From Escherichia phage vB_EcoM_G53: a stretch of 64,000 bases of DNA. Made by a program: the position numbers and the translations under genes. Where the stretch lies: sequence record MK327943.1. The stretch is one strand, 5' to 3'. Each line of letters opens with the position of its first letter. The stretch's first letter is position 1. The notes under the pieces are model-generated. The model worked only from the letters and a program-made list of their open reading frames with translations, ran no database searches and was not told the DNA's origin. Positions 2,428 through 10,997 of this stretch are shown here, piece after piece.

Positions 2428-2519
2428 AATATTCTCTTCAGTAGATTCCTAGGGCACTATTACTAAAGACCATATAATCTATCATCTTATGTGTAATAGT
2501 GCCTCAGGCTATTCAGGAT

Positions 2520-3620
2520 TTACGCTGTGAAGATTTTATCCCACATCGCAACAACTGCATCTCGATTATACTTCTTCCATACTGCTTCAGCACGTTTAAC
2601 TCGAGCTTCGTATGTGTCAGTGAATTCTAATACAGCTTTTGTGTAAAGCGCAACTACTTCTTTCTTAGGAGTAGAGGAATCAATTTCTACACGCACAGTA
2701 TCCGGGTCGTATTCGAATGTCGCATGAGGATAATCCTTAAAAACTAACTGGATTACAGGGACACCTTTAGAGATGGCTTCAATAGAACTATTCTCTACCG
2801 TACCTGTGTCAGGACACGTATTAATAAGTGCTTTAGCCGTTTTAAGACGTTCCATGATTTCACTGTGTGGAGCATCAATAATAACAGGATATTTAGCTGG
2901 TGGTGCCCATTTGCTTGGACAGTATCCTGCACCATTTTCGCCTAGTGCTTTAATCGCTTCAAGAGCAACATCAGTACGACGCATTTTAGTGTCATAACGT
3001 TGTGCACTAATAATCAAATCCGTCGCCGGAAGAACTTCAGGTTTCTCATTCAAACAAATAACCGGATAATCTTCGGCTTCAAACAACGGATTTGCTCGCC
3101 AATAATCATAATCAATTTTGTCAGTCAGACCTGAAGTCATATAACAATATTTGCGTTCAAATTCACGGAAGGCTTTAGTAGGAGCATAACTCTTACCACC
3201 ATTCTTATGAATTTGAATAGTCTGGTCCCAAATTTGAACAATGCCACGAGATACCGGTTCAAATGGTGTTGCCATAAAATTCTTATGAACTTTAGAGAGA
3301 CCTGCGTCTTTAATTGCCTGAACGGTTAGTTTAGTCGGTTCCATAGTAACAACAAAATCGTATTCATGGATGCCGGCTAGTTCAACAATCTTACGAGCCA
3401 TAGTATAACTCATACCTAGACTGAATTTTGTCAGATGACCAACAGGATGATGATTAACCTTCCAATCACCAAACGTGTCATTGTCAAAACCGATATAATC
3501 AATATCAGCACCGATGGACACAAGATATTTCAACACATTTAAATGTACCGCTTCAAGACCACCTTGTACACGTTCTGGGTTAAATGGGACTGCACGAGAT
3601 GGGATAAACATAACTTTCAT
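2520..3620 (-). CDS. GT-B fold glycosyltransferase, candidate DNA 5-hmC glycosyl(arabinosyl)transferase
   Basis: 366-aa ORF; C-terminal GT4-like E-x7-EA-x3-G-x-PVI signature (TGTVENSSIEAISKGVPVI); sits where T4 carries gene 60/mobA. Confidence 0.55.
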   Translation of the reverse strand: MKVMFIPSRAVPFNPERVQGGLEAVHLNVLKYLVSIGADIDYIGFDNDTFGDWKVNHHPVGHLTKFSLGMSYTMARKIVELAGIHEYDFVVTMEPTKLTVQAIKDAGLSKVHKNFMATPFEPVSRGIVQIWDQTIQIHKNGGKSYAPTKAFREFERKYCYMTSGLTDKIDYDYWRANPLFEAEDYPVICLNEKPEVLPATDLIISAQRYDTKMRRTDVALEAIKALGENGAGYCPSKWAPPAKYPVIIDAPHSEIMERLKTAKALINTCPDTGTVENSSIEAISKGVPVIQLVFKDYPHATFEYDPDTVRVEIDSSTPKKEVVALYTKAVLEFTDTYEARVKRAEAVWKKYNRDAVVAMWDKIFTA

Positions 3621-5983: not shown

Positions 5984-6163
5984 TTAACCCTTCTTAAGTA
6001 AGTCGTAAAAACCGCCGTTCACATGTTTAGGAGCAGAAACCCGACGAGTAGACAGACGATGACATTCAGGGCAAACATCGTTTTCTCGTTCAGAAATCCT
6101 TTTAATTTTTTCATATTCATGACCACAATCTTCAGATTGACATTTATAGTCGTATAACGGCAT
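5984..6163 (-). CDS. FmdB-like zinc-ribbon protein (59 aa), not in ORF track
   Basis: [18 protein letters not shown]...CPECH: two CxxC pairs; start ATG overlaps upstream stop (TAATG); stop 2 nt before the next ATG. Confidence 0.5.
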   Translation of the reverse strand: MPLYDYKCQSEDCGHEYEKIKRISERENDVCPECHRLSTRRVSAPKHVNGGFYDLLKKG

Positions 6164-6576
6164 TATTGTTCCTTAAAGTGAGCTTTCAACATTTGATACA
6201 AAGACCATGCCTGGTCGTTATTTTTGATAGTAATCGTCATCGCAGGAAATTCAGACAATTCGTCAAGTTCGCCAGAATCTTGCTCTTCAGACTCTTGATA
6301 TGGATTTCCAACTTCGTCAAAGAACTCTGCTTCATTCGTGGAGAGCCAGATAAAGTTTTCATCAAGAATATCACCACCTGTTGCGTATCCAACCATGCCA
6401 GTAGATGTCACAATTTTAGTAGGACGTCCAAGATGGTCAACATCTAATACTTTAAATGGTTCCATGCCAAGACGTCGTGCATAAATCCCATTATCAGTGT
6501 GGTCTTTAATAAACTCTTCTTGGGCACGTTTATCTTTAAATTGGTACCATGAGTTAACGCGGAATTTATTAGCCAT
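6163..6576 (-). CDS. hypothetical protein (start placed at MANKF)
   Basis: ORF 6163..6594; ATG at 6576 overlaps upstream stop (TAATG) with GGAAGGA SD. Confidence 0.45.
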
Positions 6577-6803
6577 TAGTAAGTTTCCTTCCAATAAGTT
6601 GTACCATTTTCAGTGATTTCACGGAAGATACCATAGATAGGCATTTCATCACCGAGTTTTTCGTAAACGTAAACCACTTCGGTGTAGCATAAAAATTCAG
6701 TCCAGCTTTTCTGTACAACAACTAAATCAGGATTAAACAGAACATCTTCAAACTCATCGATGTTTGAATCAGTAGTTACGTTTTTAATGATTTGACGTTT
6801 CAT
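6576..6803 (-). CDS. hypothetical protein (start placed at MKRQ)
   Basis: ORF 6576..6848; internal ATG at 6803 has AAGAGGAG SD and lies downstream of the early promoter. Confidence 0.4.
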
Positions 6804-6831
6804 AATATTCTCCTCTTGTTTTGATAGGTCT

Positions 6832-6860
6832 ATAGTATCATAGACCATAGTTGTTGTACA
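6832..6860 (-). promoter_or_regulatory. early promoter (sigma70-type)
   Basis: minus strand TGTACA -35, 17-nt spacer, TACTAT -10, followed by conserved AGACCTATCAA box. Confidence 0.5.
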
Positions 6861-7385
6861 TCATTTTAGCAAAATAAAATCAACTTGTTCTGCCAATGAA
6901 CGTCTAAACATTAATTGACAACTTCCGAGGATGAAATCAGGTGCTTCATAGACCGCGATGTAGTATCCTTTAGCTTTCAAGAGTTCAACATCCACCTGGT
7001 CATCAAACCATGCATAAACCGCGTCAACACTTTCAAATCCAAAATAGAACCCTTGAGCCCAATCTTCACTCAATTCAAATGTGTGCTCAATTCTATAGTA
7101 TCTTAAGATATTTTGTTCAAGGAGTTTGTCTTCATTTACTGTAGGACGATTAGGGACATTATAGTTGTCGCCGTGATGGTAGAAGTTACCTGAGAGTATT
7201 CCATGTTTATCAAGGAACTCCCATGTTTCTTCAGAGTTGTCGGTGCCCGACCAACCGTATGGCGAGCGAGGTTCTTTATTCCAAGAGGTTTCCCAAATTC
7301 TGACGGCTTTACCGTCTTCGATAGCAATTCCTGGTAATGATTCACGTTGAGTACAAAAACTACGTTCTACACGGTAAACTAACAT
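6861..7385 (-). CDS. hypothetical protein
   Basis: 174-aa ORF; GAGGAG SD upstream of ATG at 7385. Confidence 0.45.
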   Translation of the reverse strand: MLVYRVERSFCTQRESLPGIAIEDGKAVRIWETSWNKEPRSPYGWSGTDNSEETWEFLDKHGILSGNFYHHGDNYNVPNRPTVNEDKLLEQNILRYYRIEHTFELSEDWAQGFYFGFESVDAVYAWFDDQVDVELLKAKGYYIAVYEAPDFILGSCQLMFRRSLAEQVDFILLK

Positions 7386-7444: not shown

Positions 7445-7864
7445 TTATGCAAAAGATGCTGGACAATATTTTTTGATTTGGAACTCAGGAACTACCATGA
7501 ACTGTCCAGCGAAAACGATGTTATAAAGCTTAACACCATCTTCTACCCATTGGTCCGAAATAAAACCAGCAACTTGTTTCGTTGTCCATGGAGACCCGTC
7601 AGTTGCAGCAGCAATAGTAAATTCATGGTCTTTTACAACTAAAACAGACCTGCACAGTTTCCATTTGAACGCACGTTCTTCTGGCTCAATGAACTGGCTT
7701 TTAACGTAACCAATGTTACCATCGGCGTCACGAACTTTAACTTCGTTACGTCCAAAAACCGGATCACTCACAGAAAGAACTTCAACCAACTTCCCAGCAA
7801 CTTTAGAGCGAGAAGCATCCGATACGTGTACATAATCACCAATAGAGAGATTTGCAATATTCAT
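7445..7864 (-). CDS. MotB-like protein paralog (KOW-like N-terminus)
   Basis: 139-aa ORF; N-terminal IGDYVHVSDASRSKVAGKLVEV and shared C-terminal DQWVEDGVKLYNIVFAG with the next two ORFs; T4 motB neighbourhood. Confidence 0.45.
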   Translation of the reverse strand: MNIANLSIGDYVHVSDASRSKVAGKLVEVLSVSDPVFGRNEVKVRDADGNIGYVKSQFIEPEERAFKWKLCRSVLVVKDHEFTIAAATDGSPWTTKQVAGFISDQWVEDGVKLYNIVFAGQFMVVPEFQIKKYCPASFA

Positions 7865-7873
7865 AATAATTCC

Positions 7874-8371
7874 TTAAGCTTTACGAGGAGACACATAGCG
7901 AGTGATTTCAGATTCTTCAACAACTCGGAAGTCACCTAAGAATACAATATTGTATAGCTTTTTACCATCTTCAACCCATTGGTCGCTGATGAAGCCGCAC
8001 ATAGTATCAGTTTTGCTTGGATAACCGTATTCGTCGATGTAATCAAATTCTTTATCGGTTATAAATTCAACGCCTTTGCAAAGGGCCCATTTGAACTGTG
8101 TAGTAGGCTCAACGATATCGCTTGAAGCAAAGTGTGCAGGTACAACTTCTTCGCTTGAAGCAAATTGGACTCGTATATGTTTTTCCAGGAATTTAGGACT
8201 TACGTAAGCATACTGGGCATCTTGTCCGCCAAAACTGGGGATGATTCGAACTTTAACTTCTTTAACACGTCCCATGCCGTTAGTACGAAGCCCTGCTACT
8301 TCAACCAGACGACCTGCAGCTTTAGAACGAGAAGCAGGAGATACACGAAGGATTTCACCAATATTAATCAT
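7874..8371 (-). CDS. MotB-like protein paralog
   Basis: 165-aa ORF sharing N- and C-terminal motifs with 7445..7864 and 8436..8930. Confidence 0.45.
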   Translation of the reverse strand: MINIGEILRVSPASRSKAAGRLVEVAGLRTNGMGRVKEVKVRIIPSFGGQDAQYAYVSPKFLEKHIRVQFASSEEVVPAHFASSDIVEPTTQFKWALCKGVEFITDKEFDYIDEYGYPSKTDTMCGFISDQWVEDGKKLYNIVFLGDFRVVEESEITRYVSPRKA

Positions 8372-8403
8372 ATTTTTTTCTCTCTTTGTTTAAGTTGAAA
8401 TTC

Positions 8404-8433
8404 ATTATACTCCATCCATCCTTGGATGTAAAA
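8404..8433 (-). promoter_or_regulatory. early promoter, member of repeated promoter module
   Basis: minus strand TTTTAC, 18-nt spacer with palindromic core (atccaaggatggatggag), TATAAT. Confidence 0.45.
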
Positions 8434-8435
8434 CA

Positions 8436-8930
8436 TTAATTAAGAATATTAACTACTGCACTACGTGGAACAACACTAAAATCACCAGCATGAACAACGT
8501 TCAGAAGTTCAACACCGTCTTCAATCCACTGATCAGTTACCCATCCACTCACTGGACCTGCGAACGGACGTCGAATTGAAACAGCTTTACACAACAAATC
8601 AGTAGGCTCAATAGGCTTAATCAGAGTACCGTACATACAAGCGATATCCATATCAATACAGATGTCTTTAACGGGTTCTACTTCTTCAATCAACAGTTCA
8701 AAGTCGGTGCTTGGAAGGGCGGCAGTAGAAATTGTACCGTATGAATTTTTAATTTCTAAGAATAACCAAGGGCCTTCAGCTTGTTTGATGAAGTTAACAA
8801 TAGTGAAACTATTACCTTGAGTGGCGCCTAAAATTTCACAAAACTTTTCATAAGCTCGCACTGAAGCACCGTACCAGTTGATTTGTTTTTCGTCTTTCAG
8901 GATGTAAGTAGCCGTAGTATTGATGTTCAT
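8436..8930 (-). CDS. MotB-like protein paralog
   Basis: 164-aa ORF; C-terminal GWVTDQWIEDGVELLNVVHAGDF matches its two neighbours. Confidence 0.45.
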   Translation of the reverse strand: MNINTTATYILKDEKQINWYGASVRAYEKFCEILGATQGNSFTIVNFIKQAEGPWLFLEIKNSYGTISTAALPSTDFELLIEEVEPVKDICIDMDIACMYGTLIKPIEPTDLLCKAVSIRRPFAGPVSGWVTDQWIEDGVELLNVVHAGDFSVVPRSAVVNILN

Positions 8931-8962
8931 AATGTTTTTCCTGTTTGGTTAAGATAGATTCA

Positions 8963-8992
8963 TTATACTCCAACCGTCCTTGGTTGTAAACT
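8963..8992 (-). promoter_or_regulatory. early promoter, member of repeated promoter module
   Basis: minus strand GTTTAC, 18-nt spacer (aaccaaggacggttggag), TATAAT. Confidence 0.45.
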
Positions 8993-8996
8993 GGTT

Positions 8997-9674
8997 TTAT
9001 CGCTGTTTTACACTTAACGGGTCAGGATTCTCAGGGACATCTTCAAGGCCAAGCGCATAACGCTGAGCATATTTTAACATCAAAATATCTTTAGCACAAT
9101 CATGAATACTATCATGGGCAACGAATCCTTTTAGCGTACCCATCGGTAATGGACACATACTTAATCCTCGTGTCAACGAGTAAGCTTCGATTGCCGTACG
9201 AATATCGCGTTGAGCCCAGAATTTAACCGGTTCTAATTTATCAGTATCAATATCCGGTTCAAGAACACCTTCATCACGATAGAGGTCACGAATCAAATCG
9301 ACCAAGATCGGGAAGTCAAAGCTCATACCACGGCACCACATCTGTGATTTCCATTGGTCAACTTTATTAGCTCGGCAATAGTCTAAAAAGATTTTAATGC
9401 CTTCAAGCGTAGTGACATCGTCTTCAGACGGAGCCAAGTTTTTACGTGCTTCAGCCGATTGTTCTTTCCACCATTTCATAGTGGATTTAGCGAAAACTCG
9501 CTTCCCTTTCTGAGAAGCTAAATTAAATTTAATTCGCTTACCTCGTTGAACAAGTTCTTCAAATGATTCAACAACTTCAGGGTCGGAATTATATGCAATA
9601 ACCGCAAGGTCAATAACAGCCGCTTTTGATGTATTGCCGAATGTTTCAAAATCTATAATAACATCAGTGCTCAT
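8997..9674 (-). CDS. dexA: exonuclease A (DnaQ-like 3'-5' exonuclease)
   Basis: 225-aa ORF; N-terminal IIDFETFG Exo I motif; adjacent to dda as in T4. Confidence 0.75.
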   Translation of the reverse strand: MSTDVIIDFETFGNTSKAAVIDLAVIAYNSDPEVVESFEELVQRGKRIKFNLASQKGKRVFAKSTMKWWKEQSAEARKNLAPSEDDVTTLEGIKIFLDYCRANKVDQWKSQMWCRGMSFDFPILVDLIRDLYRDEGVLEPDIDTDKLEPVKFWAQRDIRTAIEAYSLTRGLSMCPLPMGTLKGFVAHDSIHDCAKDILMLKYAQRYALGLEDVPENPDPLSVKQR

Positions 9675-9683
9675 AATTTTCTC

Positions 9684-10997
9684 TCAAATAAAATGGACGT
9701 CAAAACGACCACGAGTTGTGCCGACATACAATAATTGTTTAGCTAATTCTGAATCGGCATAATGGATACACGGTGTATAAACAAAGGCAGTGTCAACAGA
9801 CATACCCTGGGCCTTATGGAAGGTTGACACCGGTAGTGCCTTCACCTTAGTGAACATACGTTTAGCATCCCAGAATTCGCTCCATGGAGCTTTACCACCT
9901 TTATTCCAGAATTTGTATGTTTCTGCGGTCTTAGCCAAAAACAAATTGAATTTATAAAGCTCTTCTTCAGAAGAAATAACCTTTATATCTTCGCGGATGT
10001 ATTCTTCATCATCCCCATATGTTTCTACTGTAAGATTCCAGTATCGTATCATATATTCACCTGAAACACCACGTGCTTTAACGAATGTAGACGTTTCTAC
10101 AGCATCTCGAATACGAACGAATTGCCCATTATTGAAAAGCATTTCAGTCATATTTTTACCGTCTAGTTTATAAGTCTTAGTTAACGGTTCCTGTAGAACA
10201 ATGACTTCGTCTTTAATAAATGGTTTTTCTGTTTCAAGAAGTTTTCGGCGAATAATTGAATTTAACTTGTCCACCGACTTATTTGTGAATGCCATCATTC
10301 GATTTTCGAAAAGGTCTTCAGGAGTTTTAACAACGTTAAAATAGTTCATCATATATGATTTAAGGTCTGTATATCCGTGAACACCATGCCCGTCAACTAC
10401 TTTATCGTAAATCCATTTGCCATTACGAATATCAGTTGCAACATCAATAATTGGTGCATTGCTACGTTTAACTTCTGTAAGGTTGCATTGCACAAAGTCT
10501 TTGTGAGTGAAGAAAGGACTTAGATACGCAGTTGATTCGCCTGGGTCTACCGGACGAATCTGGCATCGGTCGCCGATTCCAATTACTGTACACCATTTAG
10601 GGATACTAGCTAACATTATTTTAAACAGAGAACGGTCACACATTGACGCTTCATCAAATAACAGTACACGACACAAGGCTAAGTCGGGAACCTTTTTCTG
10701 TTCAAACAATACGTTTTCTTCGTATGTAGTTGGGTTGATTTTAAGAATGCTATGAATAGTCGATGCTTCTTGACCCGCAAGTTTTCTTAGAACCTTTTTA
10801 GCAGCATGTGTAGGGGCTGCTAAAATAATACCTGATTCTCCAGAAGAAATAAGGGCTTCAACGATGAATCTAGTAAGGGTTGTTTTACCTGTACCAGCGG
10901 GCCCGTTAATAGTTACGTGATGTTTCTTTTCTTTAATAGCGTTCATAACAACGTTGAAGGCGTTTTTCTGGCCTTCAGTCAAATCATCAAATGTCAT
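9684..10997 (-). CDS. dda: Dda DNA helicase (SF1B)
   Basis: 437-aa ORF; Walker A GPAGTGKTT; T4 Dda is of similar length. Confidence 0.85.
   Translation of the reverse strand: MTFDDLTEGQKNAFNVVMNAIKEKKHHVTINGPAGTGKTTLTRFIVEALISSGESGIILAAPTHAAKKVLRKLAGQEASTIHSILKINPTTYEENVLFEQKKVPDLALCRVLLFDEASMCDRSLFKIMLASIPKWCTVIGIGDRCQIRPVDPGESTAYLSPFFTHKDFVQCNLTEVKRSNAPIIDVATDIRNGKWIYDKVVDGHGVHGYTDLKSYMMNYFNVVKTPEDLFENRMMAFTNKSVDKLNSIIRRKLLETEKPFIKDEVIVLQEPLTKTYKLDGKNMTEMLFNNGQFVRIRDAVETSTFVKARGVSGEYMIRYWNLTVETYGDDEEYIREDIKVISSEEELYKFNLFLAKTAETYKFWNKGGKAPWSEFWDAKRMFTKVKALPVSTFHKAQGMSVDTAFVYTPCIHYADSELAKQLLYVGTTRGRFDVHFI

Follow-up and report, generated by a model that had tools for sequence, protein, structure and literature searches.

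Two motB copies and a motB.1 gene between dexA and motB.2 in an RB69-like Escherichia phage

MotB of bacteriophage T4 is an early protein that is toxic on overexpression, binds modified as well as unmodified DNA with no sequence specificity, co-purifies with H-NS and StpA, and changes the H-NS footprint (PMC6070864 and PMC7827196). Its overexpression is reported to up-regulate 75 host genes, of which about a third are under H-NS control, while a motB amber mutant shows an about 2-fold decrease in burst size (PMC6070864). Compaction of DNA by MotB has also been reported (Son et al. 2021, NAR 49:9229, as related in citing papers). Here, the corresponding locus of Escherichia phage vB_EcoM_G53 (MK327943.1) is described, which lies at positions 7445-8930 of a 64-kb window, the window being the whole stretch of 64,000 nucleotides (nt) that was analysed. 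The locus consists of three intact minus-strand open reading frames (ORFs), which very probably represent the motB.1 - motB - motB′ early genes of an RB69-like (Mosigvirus) T-even phage, situated between dexA and motB.2/cef/goF.

In a published survey, 102 homologues were sorted into MotB proteins, with a KOW-like N-terminal domain (N-domain) followed by a C-terminal domain (C-domain), and MotB.1-type proteins, in which the same C-domain is attached to other N-domains (Patterson-West et al. 2021, PMC7827196). According to its authors, 40 phages besides T4 have both motB and motB.1, and in RB69 motB is present twice and motB.1 once, with NP_861700, NP_861701 and NP_861702 listed in the supplementary table. 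Kim et al. 2025 (PMC12152347) placed the N-domain of MotB.1 in a family with an “LSm-like fold” that also includes GoF and Frd.2. In that study, deletion of motB.1 from T4 gave no growth phenotype, and the reporter RNA that was tested was not stabilised by MotB.1; the protein migrated partly as a dimer, and AlphaFold3 gave no confident MotB.1 homomultimers. The arrangement of two motB genes and one motB.1 is already known, being part of the annotation of the RB69 reference genome and reported in PMC7827196. The three genes are:

ORF3, 8436-8930, minus strand: MotB.1 orthologue of 164 amino acids (aa), identified by phrog_2333 and by identity to T4 MotB.1.
ORF2, 7874-8371, minus strand: MotB orthologue of 165 aa, identified by Pfam PF17613 and phrog_1671.
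ORF1, 7445-7864, minus strand: second full MotB copy of 139 aa, orthologue of RB69ORF010c, identified by Pfam PF17613 and phrog_1671.

All three proteins score above the curated gathering cut-off of the Pfam family motB (PF17613, Modifier of transcription), which is set at 25 bits for the whole protein: ORF1 reaches 87.3, ORF2 130.6 and ORF3 36.1 bits. Residues 1-160 of ORF2 align to profile positions 2-157, and the isolated N-terminal parts of ORF1 and ORF2 each match positions 2-67, with 28.7 bits for that of ORF1 alone on positions 3-66. ORF3 aligns through residues 84-159 to positions 78-153, i.e. to the C-terminal half of the profile only. The same division is seen with phrog_1671 (“MotB-like transcriptional regulator”), which is matched by ORF2 at E = 5.2e-63 and by ORF1 at E = 1.8e-52 (positions 2-166), and by ORF3 at E = 2.5e-15 over residues 112-163 only; over its full length of residues 1-164, ORF3 matches phrog_2333 (E = 1.7e-82). 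ORF2 can be aligned with T4 MotB over the entire length at 46% identity (162 columns, 128 bits) and shares 79% identity with RB69 MotB (P0023). ORF1 is 40% identical to T4 MotB over 161 columns and 41% identical to ORF2 overall, with 44% in the N-terminal parts. ORF1 and ORF2 thus have the full-length combination of KOW-like N-domain and C-domain that defines MotB proper (Category 1 of PMC7827196), which ORF3 lacks. ORF3 instead combines a MotB.1-type N-domain with the MotB-type C-domain (Category 2), aligns over its full length with the 143-aa form of T4 MotB.1, and shares 38% identity with T4 MotB.1 over 134 columns of N-domain and linker. A BFVD search with ORF3 also retrieved T4 MotB.1 (P39415, E = 1.3e-9), together with a weak match to a GoF model (E = 0.026); by sequence, ORF3 has no similarity to the GoF encoded in the window.

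The sole part that ORF3 has in common with ORF1 and ORF2 is the C-terminal beta-barrel of about 55 residues with its conserved block, DQW[VI]EDG...L.N.V. In a six-frame search of the 64-kb window, DQW[VIL] and W[VIL]EDG occur three times each, once in every ORF, and the C-domains of the MotB and MotB.1 types are related with a profile-profile probability of 98.9% (hhalign, E = 1.6e-17). This block is not a chance resemblance. By contrast, BLAST of the ORF3 N-terminus against those of ORF1 and ORF2 gave nothing significant, just a 6-residue match at E = 7.4, and hhalign found no relationship between the MotB and MotB.1 N-domains (probability 0.2%). The N-terminal 89 residues of ORF3 matched no Pfam family. 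A distant common origin of the two kinds of head is therefore not demonstrable at the level of sequence.

These results bear on an earlier, sequence-only reading of this DNA, which had proposed a triplication of the single motB of T4, with a KOW-like N-terminus and the DQWVEDG block in all copies. It had placed the three ORFs correctly (minus strand; 139, 165 and 164 aa), and its call of MotB homology and of a common C-terminal block was right; the alignment to T4 MotB that it had suggested did not return the absence of similarity that it had named as a refutation, although ORF3 aligns through the C-domain only. Its description of the family is partly inaccurate. The KOW-like N-terminus applies to ORF1 and ORF2 and not to ORF3, a MotB.1 protein whose head is different, and T4 likewise has two family members, motB and motB.1, between cef and dexA. 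As ORF3 is the MotB.1 orthologue, the supposed triplication comes down to one additional motB copy, ORF1, which is the only extra family gene relative to T4.

AlphaFold2 (AF2) models built on the family alignments (mean predicted local distance difference test, pLDDT, of 77.2 for ORF2 and 78.2 for ORF3) both predict a pair of small all-beta domains connected through a linker of low confidence (pLDDT < 50; residues 66-90 in ORF2 and 86-106 in ORF3). In both models, the C-domain has five strands and its sole helical turn lies between strands 4 and 5. An OB fold is recognised by a helix between strands 3 and 4 of the five-strand barrel; the helix position in the models thus suggests an SH3-type topology and not the OB fold that HHpred had assigned to the MotB C-domain in 2021 (PMC7827196). 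Structural matches of the ORF2 model include the Tudor domains of 53BP1 and PHF19, the chromo domain of MRG15, and KOW domains from Spt5, NusG and RfaH. Since the Tudor and chromo barrels score as well as or better than the KOW domains, the KOW resemblance would be one of fold and not of family membership. The output carries no aligned ranges, and we infer that the matches common to both models belong to the shared C-domain, the KOW matches to the MotB N-domain, and an Hfq-like match to the MotB.1 N-domain. In the Pfam scan, the KOW profile (PF00467) did not match the N-domains of ORF1 and ORF2 at E <= 10, and the only faint match of the isolated N-domains was to SH3_3 for ORF1 (E = 0.11). A PDB sequence search with ORF2 alone returned nothing at E <= 10, and a search with a 25-sequence MotB profile returned only meaningless matches, to bL9 and a designed protein (E = 0.84 and 1.2), and no KOW protein. 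Membership of the KOW family is thus not claimable from sequence, and by these PDB sequence and profile searches MotB has no solved structural relative.

The three proteins differ in charge and in the region between the domains. ORF2 is composed of a basic KOW-like N-domain (net +6), a linker (residues 66-90) and the C-terminal beta-barrel domain. Because its N-domain is basic like that of T4 MotB (+5), the role of MotB is assigned to ORF2. ORF2 would be made early and bind double-stranded DNA nonspecifically, most plausibly through the basic KOW-like N-domain; it would coat and compact DNA, alter the placement of H-NS and StpA, relieve H-NS silencing, and modestly raise burst size. ORF1 has the same two domains with almost no linker, and its N-domain is not basic (net -2). 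ORF3, with a MotB.1-type N-domain, a disordered linker (residues 86-106) and the MotB-type C-domain, is acidic in every segment (net -9, isoelectric point (pI) 4.5) and, judged by this composition, probably does not coat DNA. Given an N-domain of +6 in ORF2, one of -2 in ORF1 and -9 overall in ORF3, equivalent DNA binding by all three is unlikely. For the same reason, ORF1, which appears to have kept the fold but neither the flexible linker nor the net positive charge of its N-domain, is less likely to be a redundant copy than a variant or partner whose function has shifted, and ORF3, which carries the common C-terminal module on a putative LSm-like head, would use its C-domain for something other than DNA coating.

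Several points weigh against this interpretation. The whole of ORF2 is near-neutral with a pI of 6.2, compared to 9.2 for T4 MotB, and therefore even ORF2 may bind DNA differently. Either of the two MotB domains could be the DNA-binding part, according to PMC7827196. The DNA-binding and H-NS roles of the Mosigvirus copies are extrapolated from T4 MotB at 46% identity. Finally, the promoter-like sites of the locus, described below, are consensus matches only, and their total in the region, 16, does not exceed the 18.0 expected after shuffling.

All three genes are conserved, intact in relatives and under purifying selection. Compared with the orthologues of phage RB6, the ratio of nonsynonymous to synonymous divergence (dN/dS) is 0.10 for ORF1, 0.25 for ORF2 and 0.29 for ORF3, the value of ORF1, obtained at dS 0.66, being the lowest of the three. 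MotB homologues in the alignment range from 144 to 191 aa, and the differences in length are mainly due to insertions and deletions in the linker, where a repeat search found the following feature:

Two tandem 33-nt units in the ORF2 linker, 8105-8170, minus strand: 73% identical.

These units encode FASSEEVVPAH and FASSDIVEPTT and contribute to the variation in linker length among MotB homologues. The divergent middle region of the sequence-only reading corresponds to this linker, predicted to be disordered in ORF2 and ORF3; in ORF1 it is almost missing. The diversification proposed there describes the copies fairly, as they do vary in charge and linker, but DNA binding by the acidic ORF3, which it had implied, is doubtful. 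ORF1 has its own AAGGA ribosome-binding site and is probably co-transcribed with ORF2, since it starts only 9 nt after the ORF2 stop codon.

The second motB copy is widespread. In the phage collection, MotB-type matches are present in 749 records and two such matches in 207; an ORF1-type copy (at least 80% identity) occurs in 207 records, always together with a second MotB match. Among them are Mosigvirus phages (phiC120, AV111) as well as some of Tequatrovirus (RB6). MotB.1-type C-domains were found in 739 records. When window positions 7445-8371 are compared with the RB6 (Tequatrovirus) locus at 2501-3403, ORF1 is 89% identical at the amino acid level (dS 0.66) and ORF2 79% (dS 0.54), whereas identity of the flanking genes is much lower, with 68% for dexA (dS 2.4), 56% for ORF3/motB.1 and 43% for the motB.2 homologue. 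As the motB pair is far closer to RB6 than its flanking genes are, this suggests that the pair has been exchanged between genera as a cassette. Mosaic proteins were seen as well: the C-domain is of the ORF1 type in P0036, where it follows an RB69-type N-domain, and in P0097, where the N-domain is of the T4 type; in P0157, P0166 and P0174, a MotB.1-type C-domain follows a KOW-like N-domain. The mosaics point to recombination between tandem paralogues.

Other explanations of the cluster have to be considered. All three proteins could be copies, since diversified, of a single early protein that binds host DNA and interacts with H-NS, and could act redundantly or additively on host DNA. The conserved C-domain common to all of them fits this idea, the more so as MotB may bind DNA through this domain (PMC7827196), yet the N-domain of ORF3 is unrelated to those of ORF1 and ORF2, the charges range from a net -9 in the all-acidic ORF3 and an N-domain of -2 in ORF1 to +6 in ORF2, and DQWVEDG, the best-conserved core of the C-domain common to them, is acidic too. 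Moreover, loss of T4 motB.1 is without a growth phenotype (PMC12152347), as opposed to the loss of about half the burst in the motB amber mutant (PMC6070864). Such shared action on host DNA is therefore considered improbable. It is far harder still to see ORF1 as a functionless, decaying leftover of a tandem duplication. Its shorter length of 139 aa, the missing linker and the N-domain that is no longer basic would be expected of a decaying gene, but the reading frame is intact, the dN/dS is the low one given above, copies of at least 80% identity persist in 207 phage records of both Mosigvirus and Tequatrovirus, and 39 columns are invariant in the 25-sequence MotB alignment that includes ORF1. 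A pseudogene was rejected on these grounds of dN/dS and conservation.

A different possibility starts from the shared C-domain, which could be an SH3/Tudor-like module for protein interaction or oligomerisation instead of an OB-type DNA binder, mounted on interchangeable nucleic-acid-binding heads (basic KOW-like, acidic KOW-like and LSm-like), so that the three proteins converge on one partner or mix their oligomers. The five strands with a turn between strands 4 and 5 in both AF2 C-domains, the exchange of heads and C-domains in the five mosaic proteins, and the partly dimeric state of MotB.1 (PMC12152347) all speak in its favour. They are opposed by the published HHpred call of an OB fold (PMC7827196) and by AlphaFold3, which predicted no confident MotB.1 homomultimers (PMC12152347), and we regard this possibility as doubtful. 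A more speculative version, which is unlikely to hold, would have T-even phages shuffling a Tudor/SH3-like partner-binding or oligomerisation module among heads, with basic MotB, acidic linker-less MotB′ and LSm-headed MotB.1 acting in the three-copy phages as a graded or mixed system on one host target, possibly the complexes of H-NS and StpA with DNA. The reading preferred here remains a motB.1 - motB - motB′ cluster in which ORF2 would act as MotB, with ORF1 and ORF3 functionally distinct.

Comparison with the reference records revealed probable errors in motB.1. In T4 NC_000866 (locus 3205-3360, equivalent to window 8436-8540), motB.1 has one extra G, GGATTGGAAG compared to GGATTGAAG. The insertion ends the protein at 119 aa (13.8 kDa) within DQWIEDG, beyond which 28 further codons are preserved in the next frame; because of this one nucleotide, the reference protein lacks most of the C-domain. 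A modern T4 assembly, OZ209057.1 (locus 590-745), is without this G; its motB.1 has 143 codons and includes the complete MotB-type C-domain, and the 143-aa form is found on 256 contigs as opposed to 2 for the 119-aa form. Published work on MotB.1 gives a mass of 13.8 kDa (PMC12152347) and therefore appears to use the truncated annotation. In RB69 NC_004928 (locus 3377-3545, compared with window 8436-8600), there is an extra T in CCGTTTCG and another extra T in GACGGTTG. These two insertions split motB.1 into RB69p013 (132 aa) and RB69p012 (29 aa), the latter being the “Category 3” peptide of PMC7827196. RB69p012 is thus a fragment of motB.1 and not a separate gene. A frameshift hot spot or programmed frameshift shared by T4 and RB69 motB.1 was rejected, as the insertions are at different positions and the one in T4 is absent from the modern assembly.

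Upstream of the first two genes, promoter-like sites of the sigma-70 / T4-early type are found:

Promoter-like site upstream of ORF3, 8962-8990, minus strand: TTTACA-17-TATAAT, 11 of 12 consensus matches.
Promoter-like site upstream of ORF2, 8404-8432, minus strand: TTTACA-17-TATAAT, 11 of 12 consensus matches.

Each is contained in one unit of a 33-nt minus-strand repeat (8400-8432 and 8958-8990, 91% identical), and the promoter region seems to have undergone duplication together with the C-domain-bearing genes. The record of phage NBG1 has an annotated promoter at the position equivalent to the site upstream of ORF3.

Genomes of Mosigvirus (RB69-like) T-even phages such as vB_EcoM_NBG1, ST0 and APCEc01 share 96-97.5% identity with the window DNA, and the window belongs to Mosigvirus. 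Upstream, the three genes are flanked by dexA (8997-9674) and dda (9684-10997), and the dexA.1 and dexA.2 genes of T4 are absent between dda and dexA. Downstream follow a 174-aa ORF (ORF0, 6861-7385), cef (6576-6848) and a goF homologue (6163-6594), the last about 2 kb downstream of ORF3. The gene order in the window differs from that in T4 and RB6. ORF0 is a homologue of T4 MotB.2 (34% identity); as a candidate relative of MotB it was rejected, since it matches MotB.2, has no Pfam family and no similarity to MotB. The annotation of AV111 calls the MotB.2 homologue a “transcriptional regulator”, despite this lack of similarity. An Rfam scan of the entire window gave zero matches, and neither an RNA element nor an opposite-strand gene was seen in the region, where the plus-strand ORFs are short and contained within conserved genes of the minus strand.

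Beyond annotation, the arrangement matters little, as MotB is already under study as an H-NS-modulating, DNA-coating early protein. Three further results may be of modest value. In charge, MotB stands well apart from its second copy and from MotB.1, and DNA binding should not be assumed for these two. The T4 and RB69 records misrepresent motB.1, and published work on a 13.8 kDa protein may have used or modelled one without most of its C-domain. Finally, the AlphaFold models suggest that the shared domain is SH3/Tudor-like rather than an OB fold.

In relation to the described systems, ORF1 and ORF2 have, like T4 MotB (NP_049626), the KOW-like N-terminus SRSKAAG(K/R)LVEV and the C-terminal FKW...DQWVEDG.KLYN.VF, and T4 motB is likewise an early gene in the neighbourhood of cef and dexA. 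The difference is one motB copy in T4 compared to two in the window, the second of which, ORF1, does not have the linker of about 25 residues or the basic N-domain. T4 carries motB, motB.1 and motB.2 between cef and dexA, with motB.2 adjoining dexA; in the window, the MotB.2 homologue (6861-7385) lies downstream of the motB copies, beside cef. ORF3 has a C-terminal tail nearly identical to that of T4 MotB.1 (P39415 / NP_049627; 143-aa form D9IE42), from which it differs by a linker insert of about 20 residues, DICIDMDIACMYGTLIKP, not present in the 143-aa protein. Its N-domain is orthologous to the MotB.1 N-domain that PMC12152347 placed in the LSm-like family that holds GoF and Frd.2 as well as MotB.1. 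As for the KOW domains of NusG, Spt5 and RfaH, the MotB N-domains differ in having no Pfam KOW match and in matching no KOW protein of the PDB by sequence or profile.

The gene motB.1 is directly upstream of motB in both the T4 and the RB69-like lineages, and in RB69-like phages it opens the cluster after dexA. The closest counterpart is the RB69 cluster itself (NP_861700, NP_861701 and NP_861703, with NP_861702), which has the same gene order and sizes as the window and is annotated as RB69p013 (motB.1), RB69p012 (29-aa ORF), RB69p011 (motB), RB69p010 (“similar to motB”) and RB69p009 (motB.2). The same gene order and annotation are also found in phiC120, NBG1 and AV111. Two differences from RB69 remain: RB69 MotB has 151 aa compared to the 165 aa of ORF2, which has an extra 33-nt linker repeat, and the motB.1 that is split into ORFs of 132 and 29 aa in the RB69 reference is one intact ORF of 164 aa in the window.

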